NCBI RefSeq assembly: GCF_003334815.1
Contig: NZ_QOWO01000005.1
Length of the DNA: 64,000 bases
Reading direction: 5' to 3' (one strand)
Source of the DNA: Escherichia coli
Lineage (GTDB): Bacteria; Pseudomonadota; Gammaproteobacteria; Enterobacterales; Enterobacteriaceae
In this document: positions 2,371-52,131 of the stretch, piece by piece
How positions within the stretch are numbered: the first letter of the stretch is position 1
Layout: every line of letters begins with the position of its first letter
The notes under the pieces: generated by a model
Seen by the model: only the letters and a program-made list of their open reading frames with translations
Told to the model about the DNA's origin: nothing
Databases searched by the model: none
Translations under genes and position numbers: made by a program

Positions 2371-3645
2371 TTATTCACCAGATGCCTGTTGCGCTTCCGG
2401 CTTGCCATAAATCAGCAACGGTTTGCTTTGACCATCAATTACCGACTCGTCGATAACCACTTTTTCGACGTCTTCCATGGACGGCAGATCGTACATGGTA
2501 TCGAGCAGTGCGGCTTCTACGATGGAACGCAGGCCACGGGCACCGGTTTTACGCGCCATCGCTTTCTTAGCGATAGCATCCAGCGCCTCGTCACGGAATT
2601 CCAGATCCACGCCTTCCAGATTAAACAGCGCCTGATACTGCTTGGTCAGGGCGTTTTTCGGCTCTTTGAGGATCTGAATCAGAGCTTCTTCGCTCAGTTC
2701 ATTCAACGTTGCGACAACCGGCAGACGACCAATAAACTCAGGGATAAGACCAAACTTGATCAGATCTTCCGGTTCAACCTGCGCCAGCAGCTCGCCTTCG
2801 CTTGCTTTGTCGGACTTCGCTTTTACCGTCGCGCCAAAACCAATGCCGGAGCCGGTTTCTACACGGTGGGAAATCACTTTATCCAGACCGGCAAACGCAC
2901 CGCCACAAATAAACAGGATCTTAGAGGTATCAACCTGCAAGAATTCCTGCTGCGGATGTTTACGCCCACCTTGCGGTGGAACAGCAGCTACCGTACCTTC
3001 GATCAGTTTCAACAGTGCCTGCTGTACGCCTTCACCGGAAACGTCTCGGGTAATGGACGGGTTGTCTGACTTACGAGAAATCTTGTCGATTTCATCGATG
3101 TAGACAATACCACGCTGTGCTTTCTGGACATCGTAGTCGCATTTCTGCAACAGCTTCTGAATGATGTTTTCAACGTCTTCACCCACATAACCGGCTTCGG
3201 TCAGTGTAGTCGCGTCGGCCATGGTGAACGGAACATCCAGCAGGCGCGCCAGCGTTTCAGCCAGCAGCGTTTTACCGGAACCGGTCGGACCGATCAGCAG
3301 AATGTTACTTTTGCCCAACTCGACGCCATTGCTGGTATCGCCGTTGCGCAGACGTTTGTAATGGTTGTATACCGCGACCGCCAGCACTTTTTTCGCCTGT
3401 TCCTGGCCGATAACGTAATCGTCCAGGTGGTTGCGAATTTCATGCGGCGTCGGTAGCGCACTGCGTTCACGATGCGGTGCAACTTCTTTAATCTCTTCGC
3501 GAATGATGTCGTTACATAAATCAACACATTCGTCGCAGATATACACGGATGGACCGGCAATCAGCTTGCGCACTTCATGCTGGCTTTTGCCGCAAAAAGA
3601 GCAATACAGCAATTTGCCTGAGCCATCTTTGCGTTTATCTGTCAT
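2371..3645 (-). CDS. clpX: ClpX ATP-dependent protease ATPase/unfoldase subunit
   Basis: 424-aa ORF; N-terminal zinc-finger CSFCGK..CDEC, Walker A GPTGSGKT. Confidence 0.97.
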
Positions 3646-3770
3646 GGGTCAAAACCTCTTCTTTGTTCTTTGTGCCGCACACGACGACGCAAATGCCATT
3701 CTCAGGCGCAAGCCGCTTACAGCGTTGTGCCGCCCTGGATAAGTATAGCGGCACAGTTGCGCCTCTGGCA

Positions 3771-4639: not shown

Positions 4640-5947
<1,308 letters not shown>

Positions 5948-7525: not shown

Positions 7526-9001
7526 ATGTCCAGTCAATATTTACGTATTTTTCAACAGCCGCGTTCAGCCATATTGCTGATCCTGGGTTTTGCTTCCGGG
7601 CTACCGCTCGCCCTGACATCCGGTACCTTACAGGCCTGGATGACGGTCGAGAATATTGATCTCAAAACCATTGGTTTCTTCTCTCTGGTAGGCCAGGCTT
7701 ACGTTTTTAAATTCCTCTGGTCACCGCTGATGGACCGCTACACGCCTCCATTTTTTGGGCGGCGACGCGGTTGGCTGCTCGCCACGCAAATCCTGTTATT
7801 AGTCGCCATTGCGGCGATGGGTTTTCTCGAACCAGGCACCCAACTCCGCTGGATGGCGGCGCTGGCGGTGGTGATCGCTTTTTGCTCTGCCTCCCAGGAT
7901 ATTGTCTTCGATGCGTGGAAAACCGATGTGCTCCCGGCAGAAGAACGTGGTGCGGGCGCGGCAATCAGCGTTCTGGGTTACCGTTTAGGGATGCTGGTTT
8001 CCGGCGGCCTAGCCCTGTGGCTGGCAGATAAATGGCTGGGCTGGCAGGGCATGTACTGGTTGATGGCGGCGCTGTTGATCCCCTGTATTATCGCGACGTT
8101 GCTTGCACCAGAACCGACCGACACCATTCCTGTGCCAAAAACGCTGGAACAAGCGGTTGTTGCACCTCTGCGAGATTTCTTTGGTCGCAATAATGCCTGG
8201 CTTATTTTGCTTCTTATCGTGCTGTATAAGCTGGGCGACGCATTCGCCATGAGCCTGACAACCACGTTTTTGATTCGCGGCGTCGGGTTTGATGCGGGTG
8301 AAGTAGGCGTGGTTAACAAAACGCTTGGCTTACTAGCGACCATTGTTGGCGCATTGTACGGTGGGATTTTGATGCAGCGCCTGTCACTGTTCCGGGCACT
8401 GCTGATTTTCGGCATTTTACAAGGTGCGTCTAACGCCGGTTACTGGCTGCTGTCGATTACTGATAAGCATCTCTACAGCATGGGCGCAGCCGTCTTTTTC
8501 GAAAACCTCTGTGGCGGGATGGGCACATCAGCCTTTGTCGCGCTGTTAATGACGCTATGTAATAAGTCATTTTCCGCTACTCAATTTGCCCTGCTCTCAG
8601 CGCTTTCTGCTGTAGGGCGAGTTTATGTCGGCCCCGTGGCGGGTTGGTTTGTTGAAGCACACGGCTGGTCGACATTCTATCTATTCTCCGTCGCCGCTGC
8701 CGTACCAGGGCTTATTTTGCTGCTGGTTTGCCGCCAGACGCTTGAATATACACGAGTAAATGACAACTTTATCTCCCGTACCGCATATCCGGCAGGTTAT
8801 GCCTTTGCCATGTGGACACTGGCGGCGGGCGTCAGCCTGTTGGCCGTGTGGTTACTGCTATTGACGATGGACGCGCTGGATTTGACGCACTTCTCTTTCC
8901 TGCCTGCTCTGCTGGAAGTCGGGGTTTTAGTCGCCCTTTCTGGCGTCGTGCTTGGTGGTTTGCTGGATTATCTGGCGCTACGAAAAACGCATCTGACGTA
9001 A
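7526..9001 (+). CDS. ampG: AmpG muropeptide (anhydromuropeptide) permease, MFS
   Basis: 491-aa multi-TM ORF MSSQYLRIFQQPRSAILLILGFASGLPLALTSGTLQAWM... Confidence 0.95.
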   Translation: MSSQYLRIFQQPRSAILLILGFASGLPLALTSGTLQAWMTVENIDLKTIGFFSLVGQAYVFKFLWSPLMDRYTPPFFGRRRGWLLATQILLLVAIAAMGFLEPGTQLRWMAALAVVIAFCSASQDIVFDAWKTDVLPAEERGAGAAISVLGYRLGMLVSGGLALWLADKWLGWQGMYWLMAALLIPCIIATLLAPEPTDTIPVPKTLEQAVVAPLRDFFGRNNAWLILLLIVLYKLGDAFAMSLTTTFLIRGVGFDAGEVGVVNKTLGLLATIVGALYGGILMQRLSLFRALLIFGILQGASNAGYWLLSITDKHLYSMGAAVFFENLCGGMGTSAFVALLMTLCNKSFSATQFALLSALSAVGRVYVGPVAGWFVEAHGWSTFYLFSVAAAVPGLILLLVCRQTLEYTRVNDNFISRTAYPAGYAFAMWTLAAGVSLLAVWLLLLTMDALDLTHFSFLPALLEVGVLVALSGVVLGGLLDYLALRKTHLT

Positions 9002-15784: not shown

Positions 15785-15872
15785 GCCTGCTGCGCTACGC
15801 TTATCAGGCCTACAAAGTTTCTGAATTACAAACCTTTGTAGGCCGAATCAGGCGTTCATGCCGCATCTGACA
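15785..15872. repeat. BIME: two REP (palindromic unit) copies in inverted orientation between convergent yajR and yajQ
   Basis: gcctgctgcgctacgcttatcaggcctaca ... tgtaggccgaatcaggcgttcatgccgcatc; classic REP motifs. Confidence 0.8.
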
Positions 15873-48600: not shown

Positions 48601-49785
48601 ATGAAAAAAGTCATTTTATCTTTGGCTCTGGGCACGTTTGGTTTGGGGATGGCCGAATTTGGCATTATGGGCGTGCTCACGGAGCTGGCGCATAACGTAG
48701 GAATTTCGATTCCTGCCGCCGGGCATATGATCTCGTATTATGCACTGGGGGTGGTGGTCGGTGCGCCAATCATCGCACTCTTTTCCAGCCGCTACTCACT
48801 CAAACATATCTTGTTGTTTCTGGTGGCGTTGTGCGTCATTGGCAACGCCATGTTCACGCTCTCTTCGTCTTACCTGATGCTCGCCATTGGTCGGCTGGTA
48901 TCCGGCTTTCCGCATGGCGCATTTTTTGGCGTCGGAGCGATCGTGTTATCAAAAATTATCAAACCCGGAAAAGTCACCGCCGCCGTGGCGGGGATGGTTT
49001 CCGGGATGACAGTCGCCAATTTGCTGGGCATTCCGCTGGGAACGTATTTAAGTCAGGAATTTAGCTGGCGTTACACCTTTTTATTGATCGCTGTTTTTAA
49101 TATTGCGGTGATGGCATCGGTCTATTTTTGGGTGCCAGATATTCGCGACGAGGCGAAAGGAAATCTGCGCGAACAATTTCACTTTTTGCGCAGCCCGGCC
49201 CCGTGGTTAATTTTCGCCGCCACGATGTTTGGCAACGCAGGTGTGTTTGCCTGGTTCAGCTACGTAAAGCCATACATGATGTTTATTTCCGGTTTTTCGG
49301 AAACGGCGATGACCTTTATTATGATGTTAGTTGGGCTAGGGATGGTGCTGGGAAATATGCTAAGTGGCAGGATTTCAGGACGTTATTCACCACTGCGCAT
49401 TGCAGCAGTGACTGACTTTATAATTGTACTGGCACTGCTGATGCTCTTTTTCTGCGGCGGCATGAAAACAACGTCGCTTATTTTTGCTTTTATTTGTTGC
49501 GCGGGATTATTTGCCCTTTCAGCACCGCTACAAATATTGTTACTACAAAACGCCAAAGGCGGAGAGTTATTAGGTGCCGCAGGTGGGCAAATAGCGTTTA
49601 ACCTCGGTAGCGCCGTCGGCGCATATTGCGGAGGTATGATGCTGACGCTGGGGCTGGCATATAATTACGTGGCGCTGCCTGCCGCCCTGCTTTCGTTTGC
49701 TGCGATGTCGTCGTTGCTGCTGTATGGTCGCTATAAGCGCCAGCAAGCGGCGGATACTCCGGTGCTGGCGAAACCACTGGGGTAG
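48601..49785 (+). CDS. araJ: AraJ MFS transporter (arabinose-inducible)
   Basis: Track ORF from 48517; trimmed to MKKVILSLALGTFGLGMAEFGIMGVL (394 aa). Confidence 0.92.
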   Translation: MKKVILSLALGTFGLGMAEFGIMGVLTELAHNVGISIPAAGHMISYYALGVVVGAPIIALFSSRYSLKHILLFLVALCVIGNAMFTLSSSYLMLAIGRLVSGFPHGAFFGVGAIVLSKIIKPGKVTAAVAGMVSGMTVANLLGIPLGTYLSQEFSWRYTFLLIAVFNIAVMASVYFWVPDIRDEAKGNLREQFHFLRSPAPWLIFAATMFGNAGVFAWFSYVKPYMMFISGFSETAMTFIMMLVGLGMVLGNMLSGRISGRYSPLRIAAVTDFIIVLALLMLFFCGGMKTTSLIFAFICCAGLFALSAPLQILLLQNAKGGELLGAAGGQIAFNLGSAVGAYCGGMMLTLGLAYNYVALPAALLSFAAMSSLLLYGRYKRQQAADTPVLAKPLG

Positions 49786-49805
49786 GTTATAGTCTCGGTG
49801 CTCAT

Positions 49806-50012
49806 TACTTATTGCCGGATGCGGCGTGAACGCCTTATCCGCCCTACGCGGTTCTGGCACATTTTGCAGGCCTGATAAGACGCGGCAAGCGTCGCATCAG
49901 GCATCGGAGCACTTATTGCCGGATGCGGCGTGAACGCCTTATCCGGCCTACGGTTCTGGCACCTTTTGTAGGCCTGATAAGACGCGGCAAGCGTCGCATC
50001 AGGCATGATGCG
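49806..50012. repeat. BIME cluster: about 106-bp unit (two opposed REPs) present twice in tandem between convergent araJ and mak
   Basis: cttattgccggatgcggcgtgaacgccttatccg..ctggcac..ttt.gcaggcctgataagacgcggcaagcgtcgcatcaggcat repeated with few mismatches starting at about 49806 and 49912. Confidence 0.85.
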
Positions 50013-50029
50013 CCAATTGCCTACGTTTT

Positions 50030-50938
50030 TTACTCTTGTGGCCATAACCACGCAGCGCCGCGTACGCCGCTGGAATCACCGTGCTTCGCCTTACGCACCG
50101 GCGTTTCACATTCGCCGCCGAAGACAAATTGTTTAATCAACTGCCCAACCGTTTGATATAAACGGTCTACATTGCTCATCCCGCCCCCCAGGACAATCAC
50201 ATCCGGATCGAGAATATTCACGACATGTGCCAGCGATTTTGCCAGCCGCAGCTCGTAGCGACGCAATGCCAGTTCCGCTACCGGATCGCTTTCTTCAACC
50301 AGGCGGATAATTTCACTGCCTTTCAGCGCATGTCCGCTCAAACGACGATAATCCATCGCGAATCCCGTGCCCGAAATAAAGGTTTCAATACAACCTTGTT
50401 TACCGCAATAACAAGGGACTTCCTCGCGATAACGCAGTTCGTCTTCGTCCATCCACGGTAGCGGATTGTGTCCCCACTCACCTGCCGTGCCATTGCCGCC
50501 GATATGCGCCCGCCCATTGAATGCCACGCCCGCGCCGCATCCCGTGCCGATAATCACGGCAAATACCGTCTGCGCTCCCGCTGCCGCGCCATCTACTGCT
50601 TCTGAAACCGCCAGACAGTTAGCGTCATTTGCCAGCCGCACTTCCCGCTGCAACCTCGCGCTTAAGTCTTTATCGAATGGCTGACCGTTGAGCCAGGTTG
50701 AATTGGCATTCTTCACCACACCGGTGTAAGGCGAAATTGAGCCAGGAATGCCCATACCTACCGTTCCGCGCTGCCCCGTCGCCTGCTCCGCCATATCAAC
50801 CAACGTGGCGATCGTTTCAATAGTCTGCCGGTAATCATCACGCGGCGTGGGCAGACGATGGCGGTACAACTGCTCCCCTGCATCGCCCAGTGCAATCACT
50901 TCAGTTTTGGTGCCGCCTAAATCGATACCTATACGCAC
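50030..50938 (-). CDS. mak: Mak manno(fructo)kinase, ROK family
   Basis: Track ORF to 51076; conserved N-terminus (M)[18 protein letters not shown] begins at GTG 50938 (302 aa). Confidence 0.92.
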
Positions 50939-51993: not shown

Positions 51994-52028
51994 GCCGGAT
52001 GCGACGCCTGCCGCGTCTTATCCGGCGT
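51994..52028. repeat. REP element between rdgC and ykiA
   Basis: gccggatgcgacgcctgccgcgtcttatccggcgt palindromic unit. Confidence 0.75.
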
Positions 52029-52131
52029 ACGAAGCCACACCAGGCATATAATTATTCGCTACGGCGAGCAATAATTTTTAGCGCAGCAATATTATGCGTT
52101 TTACGCTGTAACTTGCTCCATGGACGTTGTG

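Follow-up and report, generated by a model that had tools for sequence, protein, structure and literature searches.

The repeat array between araJ and mak in the Escherichia coli DNA analysed here (a stretch of 64 kb, referred to as the window) is the BIME-2 element of the mak-araJ spacer of the E. coli K-12 reference genome, and the number of its units varies across E. coli between one, two and three. Family identity and anatomy were established from the window, and the unit-number polymorphism from a census of 5,426 complete E. coli genomes. Taken jointly, the data are very likely explained by a K-12 BIME-2 whose unit number changes by unequal exchange or slippage, whose hairpins form modest 3' barriers and whose polymorphism is close to neutral. 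The array is real but ordinary: both the element and its kind of polymorphism are known.

Anatomy of the araJ-mak array

Tandem Repeats Finder reported a tandem array at 49807-50006 with a period of 102, 1.9 copies, 94% matches and 2% indels (score 363). Two pairs of direct repeats were found in the same interval, one of 42 nt (49807-49848 and 49911-49952; 98% identity, spacing 104) and one of 56 nt (49849-49904 and 49951-50006; 96% identity, spacing 102). Both analyses gave a unit of 102-104 nt, not the ~106 bp of the initial annotation, which had correctly described a tandem arrangement of two units with four REPs between convergent araJ and mak genes. Between the head-to-tail copies there are 3 substitutions and one 2-nt indel. 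Each unit is made of a Y-type REP, a tail-to-tail linker of 18 or 16 nt and an inverted Z2-type REP, so REP orientations alternate along the array (+,-,+,-). The spacer between the two stop codons measures 244 bp (49786-50029) and contains the whole array, which is extragenic; RefSeq annotation under the matching sequence names the flanking genes araJ and mak. The features are as follows.

48601-49785, plus strand: araJ (MFS transporter), mapped from MG1655 annotation 411297-412481; stop codon 28 nt before REP 1
49398, minus strand: Rho-dependent RNA 3' end (MG1655 411684, + strand), antisense inside araJ; Adams 2021, Supplementary file 2
49807-50006, no strand: BIME-2 array of two tandem units, 'B' (49807-49910) and 'C' (49911-50006); Tandem Repeats Finder and direct repeats
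49814-49847, plus strand: REP 1, Y type, GCCGGATGCGGCGTGAACGCCTTATCCGCCCTAC; regular expression and ViennaRNA, -14.5 kcal/mol against -21.3 kcal/mol for REP 3
49848-49865, no strand: tail-to-tail linker (S-type) of unit 1, 18 nt, without IHF consensus; read from the sequence
49866-49902, minus strand: REP 2, Z2 type, inverted, GCCTGATGCGACGCTTGCCGCGTCTTATCAGGCCTGC; fold of -21.3 kcal/mol
49869-49948, minus strand: match to Rfam RF02564 (naRNA4), spanning REP 3, the head-to-head linker and REP 2
49903-49917, no strand: head-to-head linker between units, 15 nt, ATCGGAGCACTTATT; allele comparison
49918-49951, plus strand: REP 3, Y type, canonical; fold of -21.3 kcal/mol
49952-49967, no strand: tail-to-tail linker of unit 2, 16 nt, 2 nt shorter than that of unit 1; read from the sequence
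49968-50004, minus strand: REP 4, Z2 type, inverted, canonical; fold
50030-50938, minus strand: mak (fructokinase), mapped from MG1655 annotation 410144-411052; gene end 25 nt from REP 4

All four REPs fold as hairpins (-14.5 to -21.3 kcal/mol, ViennaRNA). The two Y hairpins correspond to GCCGGATGCGGCG...CCTAC and the two Z2 hairpins to GCCTGATGCGACGC...CCTAC. One degenerate position was found in each of the first two REPs: in REP 1 a G>C change in the 3' arm (CCGCCC) makes the stem weaker, and REP 2 carries CCTGC. The CTAC/GTAG tetranucleotide is kept in three of the four REPs. Minimum free energy folds of the whole-spacer RNA gave z-scores of -5.4 and -5.7, values that follow from the presence of four palindromes and add nothing further. 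In the window, 8 REP tail motifs were counted where 0.51 would be expected; none of 100 shuffles reached 8, and half of these motifs (4/8) fall in the array. The others form a convergent pair at 15800/15838 (15800-15851) and two singles, at 30075 (30075-30088) and 52017 (52017-52030). Two open reading frames run through the array, one of 80 aa (49809-50051, minus strand) and one of 77 aa (49923-50156, plus strand); both were taken as by-products of GC-rich repeats.

The array is the K-12 reference BIME-2 of this spacer

Over 3,301 bp, the window agrees at every base with the reverse complement of MG1655 409500-412800, which places the array at about 411078-411268 in that genome; the two-unit form is the state of the K-12 reference genome. 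In the BIME classification of Gilson and Bachellier, as summarised by Ton-Hoang 2012 (PMC3333891), BIME-2 elements combine z2 and y REPs with a short S linker and occur in tandem multi-copy arrays whose number varies between loci and strains. The array has Y and Z2 REPs, alternating orientation, a short linker, tandem copies and a strain-variable unit number, and it is extragenic, in keeping with a family that typically occupies 3' untranslated regions. In agreement with this assignment, Table DS3 of Sutormin 2018 (PMC6379681) lists a 'BIMEs2' interval of 190 bp at 410303-410493 in W3110 coordinates. Since mak ends at 410276 and araJ at 410521 in W3110, this interval is flanked by the two gene ends and the entry corresponds to the araJ-mak array. 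The full-length Y+Z2 model of Rfam naRNA4 (RF02564) also matched the minus strand with 79.8 bits, above the gathering score of 59.5.

Membership in a known element family, as proposed by the initial annotation, was thus borne out by REP types, the Rfam match and the published table. The same annotation had presented the local duplication as the point of interest; this emphasis is misplaced, because BIME-2 elements are by definition tandem and multi-copy (PMC3333891), so that two units are the normal form of the family as well as the K-12 state. The BIME-2 family, its strain-variable unit number and the sequence of this array, which is that of the K-12 reference, were already published. The analysis adds a census of one locus and, through it, a natural series of one, two and three units on identical flanks, usable for studying REP dosage in mRNA decay, read-through and gyrase action. 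It also provides a correction: IHF binding does not apply to BIME-2 elements, and the array does not rank among the strong gyrase sites. The repeat family has been described since the 1980s-90s, and the overall importance of the finding is small, as it concerns an element of the best-studied bacterial genome that belongs to a known repeat family.

Unit number varies across E. coli

The locus, searched with a 1,001-bp query, was present in 5,390 of the 5,426 complete genomes, in records spanning ~1,001, ~899 or 1,025 bp, with one of 1,872 bp. Allele counts required one contiguous alignment, imposed by stringent E-value limits, and were as follows.

Two-unit junction as in the window: 1,374/5,426 (25%)
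268-bp two-unit form, older, diverged and Nissle-like: 1,028/5,426 (19%)
Contiguous one-unit spacer: at least 2,548/5,426 (47%)
IS1397-family junction in the Z2 loop: 94/5,426 (1.7%)
Three units: 1/5,426 (PigCaeca_1)

The one-unit count depended on the threshold, with 917 genomes at E<=1e-85, a limit that cuts at 96% identity, and 2,548 at 1e-72 with an 80% coverage filter. About 380 genomes lie outside these classes and comprise divergent or decayed one-unit alleles together with 36 genomes without a full-length locus. The three-unit allele of PigCaeca_1 was 100% identical to a synthetic three-unit construct along 407 nt. These frequencies describe the database and not natural populations, because laboratory K-12 derivatives and clinical clones are strongly represented in the collection. 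The expectation that copy number differs between strains was confirmed by the presence of one unit, two units (in two forms) and three units in this collection. A fixed array of exactly two units in all E. coli, which the initial annotation had named as the alternative, does not describe the 5,426 genomes.

The alleles are distinguished by spacer length: 142 bp for one unit and 244-246 bp for the K-12 type of two units. The 268-bp form, found in strain p4A and Nissle 1917, has a linker longer by 24 nt and two units that have clearly diverged. Decayed one-unit alleles have spacers of 127-139 bp. The one-unit allele of strain 98198 (locus coordinates 686-1658) and of 93 other genomes is interrupted in the Z2 loop by an IS1397-family element of ~973 bp, annotated as incomplete. 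The junction reads GACGCG, the IS, then GCAAGCGTC, and lies exactly at the loop of the Z2 REP; its identity in all 94 genomes suggests one clonal event.

Further sequence changes were noted in single genomes. The annotation of GPEC1366 (locus coordinates 529-900) gives mak as a pseudogene with a frameshift. In 2015C-3101, GTAGATACTGATAAG replaces GTAGGCCTGATAAG in the Z2 REP tail and breaks the stem. In the one-unit BIME of Escherichia sp. MOD1-EC7003 (8293-8466, after mak), the head of the Z2 REP contains six copies of GCCTGAT (ATGCCTGATGCCTGAT...); this 7-nt microsatellite is a second repeat instability, on a smaller scale, in the same element.

Allele structure points to exchange between units

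K-12-type alleles with two units all have a single junction in common, GGCAT-CGGAGCAC-TTATTGCC. Three sequence types of unit (A, B and C) were recognised among them: K-12 is B-C, ATCC 8739 is A-C, and both 33-6 and NMBU-W12E19 are A-B. Such mosaics built on a single junction point to exchange between units. Flanks of 700 bp were 100% identical between 13C1065T (B, one unit), MG1655 (B-C), ATCC 8739 (A-C) and PigCaeca_1 (B-C-C).

We propose that units would be gained and lost by in-register unequal homologous exchange, or by replication slippage, between direct repeats of ~100 bp. If two sister B-C arrays paired out of alignment and crossed over once within the Z2 REP, where B and C are identical, the reciprocal products would be B and B-C-C. 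Both predicted products, B and B-C-C, were found on flanks 100% identical to those of K-12. As these products fit unequal exchange or slippage, a special enzyme is unnecessary. The exchange mechanism is inferred from its products, and the TnpA-REP transposase (RAYT; yafM in K-12) could generate identical in-register products.

Catalysis of the change in unit number by TnpA-REP, in place of homologous exchange or slippage, was considered on this ground. In vitro, the protein cuts BIME substrates and recombines them; those who described it put it forward as a source of BIME-2 copy-number variation (PMC3333891), and the retention of the CTAC/GTAG tetranucleotide in most REPs of the array is compatible with its action. 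However, its activity was demonstrated in vitro, a 2026 preprint found that REP arrays stay stable on plasmids, and the alleles observed are exactly those that simple unequal homologous exchange predicts. We therefore regard catalysis by TnpA-REP as unlikely and retain homologous exchange or slippage as the source of the polymorphism.

Concerning the direction of change, five positions distinguish unit C from unit B, and C recurs in the A-C allele, so that a one-unit B allele on K-12 flanks is more simply explained by deletion. Parsimony over about 25 alleles, rather than a full phylogeny, favours the loss of a unit from the two-unit state over a recent duplication of a single unit as the origin of the difference on identical flanks. 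A three-unit A-B-C ancestor could have given A-B, A-C and B-C by single deletions. The three-unit search should have been able to detect such an allele and returned only the B-C-C genome; A-B-C is therefore absent from the collection.

Related species carry one-unit, decayed or different arrays

One unit was found in three other Escherichia lineages. E. whittamii (4725-4893) has a decayed two-unit array homologous to the 268-bp form of E. coli, with which it shares unit-specific loop sequences and the linker. Both of its outer REPs are truncated and only the inner Y-linker-Z2 module is intact, scoring 75.9 bits with the naRNA4 model. This homology indicates that two-unit arrays are old at the araJ-mak locus.

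In E. albertii NBRC 107761 (3472-3700), araJ is apparently absent and a lone degenerate REP-like hairpin follows mak, beyond which the sequence presumably enters an sbcC-like 3' end. Several Citrobacter species have plain hairpins without REP at the mak spacer. Citrobacter koseri NCTC10786 (1-308) has a separate BIME-like array of at least 4 units, with a Citrobacter-type REP pair, directly after mak. With one-unit lineages, a decayed two-unit array in E. whittamii and an E. albertii locus apparently lacking araJ, the polarity of unit number given by the outgroups is mixed and not clean.

IHF and gyrase at the array

The initial annotation had stated that arrays of this kind bind DNA gyrase and IHF. 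The IHF consensus WATCAANNNNTTR, searched with at most one mismatch, was not found in 49786-50029; the nearest occurrence was at 50146, inside mak. This result fits the assignment of IHF binding to the L linker of BIME-1, and the suggestion was therefore misapplied to this array.

Some BIME-2 elements are enriched in gyrase cleavage sites, and Y REPs are cleaved more than Z2 REPs (PMC6379681). Gyrase binding and cleavage do not define every member of the class. Topo-seq data for the W3110 interval recorded 1 site with ciprofloxacin and 0 with rifampicin plus ciprofloxacin, microcin B17 or oxolinic acid, compared with 35/13/3/10 cleavage sites at tldD-yhdP and 6-35 at strong BIME-2s (PMC6379681, Table DS3). 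As about 0.2 sites per 190 bp are expected by chance, the single ciprofloxacin site is close to chance level. The array is not among the strong gyrase BIME-2s, and the published data for the locus offer no support for the gyrase suggestion.

These counts bear directly on the idea that the array is a functional gyrase site at which unit number sets gyrase recruitment and tunes supercoiling between the convergent genes. The preference of the enzyme for this class and for Y REPs, two of which are present, agrees with such a role. Only a subset of BIME-2s is bound, however, and the near-chance count at this array compared with the strong members of the class makes a gyrase function quite improbable.

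Transcription through the array and its likely function

No intrinsic terminator (GC-rich hairpin followed by a T run) was detected on either strand within 49600-50200 by consensus scan, and no promoter consensus was detected in the spacer. A literature search combining araJ with REP found no relevant paper. A 2026 preprint describes REPs as local, context-dependent terminators and stabilisers, which between convergent genes work in both directions and go along with higher expression of the two genes (bioRxiv 10.64898/2026.03.23.713779). Term-seq tables for three conditions (LB, M63) contain no 3' end within MG1655 411000-411299 (Adams 2021, PMC7815308). A role of the array as an mRNA 3' stabiliser, also put forward by the initial annotation, accordingly finds no support in existing data for the locus, where 3' ends are not listed in the array; low expression may be the cause of their absence. 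Expression of araJ needs arabinose.

The same tables list the Rho-dependent 3' end inside araJ (Rho score 4.5, p = 1.4e-8; Adams 2021, PMC7815308), which lies ~415 nt beyond the array for transcripts running in the mak direction. Its position past the array indicates that transcription in the mak direction crosses the whole BIME-2, and because of this read-through the array can be no more than a leaky terminator for such transcripts. Both convergent mRNAs carry the hairpins in their 3' untranslated regions, where these would modestly hinder 3'-5' exonucleases and read-through, depending on context. The most likely function of the four hairpins, judged from their position and the general behaviour of REPs, is modest 3'-end protection and a partial block of read-through for both mRNAs. 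The second unit probably adds little, and the copy-number polymorphism is then probably close to neutral.

The head-to-head linker occurs only in alleles with two or more units and resembles the linker of the Rfam naRNA4 consensus, naRNA4 being defined as a two-hairpin unit of this kind (PMC4550694). Scores obtained with the model followed unit number: one unit gave 39.2 bits, three units gave two hits, and the gathering score was passed only with at least two units. A second unit might on this basis complete a head-to-head Y-linker-Z2 module encoding a naRNA4-like, HU-binding RNA involved in nucleoid organisation. However, the Rfam model in effect describes any BIME-2 repeat unit, and the 268-bp form, carried by 19% of genomes, falls below the gathering score on account of its long linker. 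The nucleoid role of naRNA4 is itself disputed: the 2026 preprint reports that the naRNA4/HU model is unsupported, REP325/naRNA4 acting locally as a terminator and stabiliser and causing no measurable nucleoid compaction (bioRxiv 10.64898/2026.03.23.713779), and the lack of discrete 3' ends in the Term-seq tables also argues against such an RNA. The need for two or more units stems from the model itself and is no evidence for an RNA gene, and we consider a naRNA4-like product extremely unlikely.

Selection on unit number, with lineage-specific numbers acting as a dial for araJ and mak expression through mRNA stability or a block of read-through, was weighed as another explanation of the allele distribution. 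REPs between convergent genes correlate with higher expression, and differences in REP content between strains have been proposed as regulatory diversity. Compensatory changes between alleles preserve stem pairing, both in Z2 REPs (GACGC/GCGTC versus GACAC/GTGTC) and in Y REPs (GGCGT/ACGCC versus GGCGC/GCGCC). These variants are nevertheless found family-wide in REPs and are also explained by gene conversion (PMC3333891). All unit-number states coexist on identical flanks, and decayed REPs (HB42, E. whittamii) and REPs disrupted by the IS (94 genomes) are tolerated. The apparent absence of araJ in E. albertii and the lack of REP at the locus in several Citrobacter species weighs in the same direction, and selection of this kind appears rather improbable.

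A polymorphism that is non-neutral because the second unit adds a module, doubles the hairpin barrier and shifts mak or araJ mRNA stability or read-through is very unlikely. If it were true, lineages with one, two and three units would differ in the expression of a sugar kinase and a transporter, and the locus would be a natural allelic series for the tuning of expression by REP dosage. A near-neutral polymorphism of modest 3' barriers remains the reading that we prefer.

Comparison with known repeat elements

An inverted REP pair within an intergenic spacer is also characteristic of BIME-1, an element made of Y and Z1 REPs and otherwise called RIP or RIB. BIME-1 elements are single-copy and have a long L linker that binds IHF (PMC3333891). 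Identity with BIME-1, or with an IHF-binding RIP, was rejected: where BIME-1 has a Z1 REP and a long L linker with an IHF site, the second REP of the araJ-mak array is Z2 and its linkers are 16-18 nt long, without IHF consensus.

The preference of IS1397 for REP loops as targets is known (references in PMC3333891), and the 94 genomes with an insertion in the Z2 loop fit this preference; the insertion is absent from the window. The REP325/naRNA4 element, a BIME-2 located between yjdM and yjdN, shares the Y-linker-Z2 module with the araJ-mak array, the linker being AUAAGUGCUCCGAU in the array and ACGGUGCCGACU in the naRNA4 consensus. REP325 comprises six units inside an operon, whereas the araJ-mak array comprises two units between convergent genes. 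Compared with the BIME-2 family as a whole, the array shows the same alternating Y and Z2 REPs, short tail-to-tail and head-to-head linkers, extragenic position, tandem arrangement and variable unit number. Nothing of substance differs; the araJ-mak array is a small member, with 2 units in a family whose arrays reach 12 REPs.
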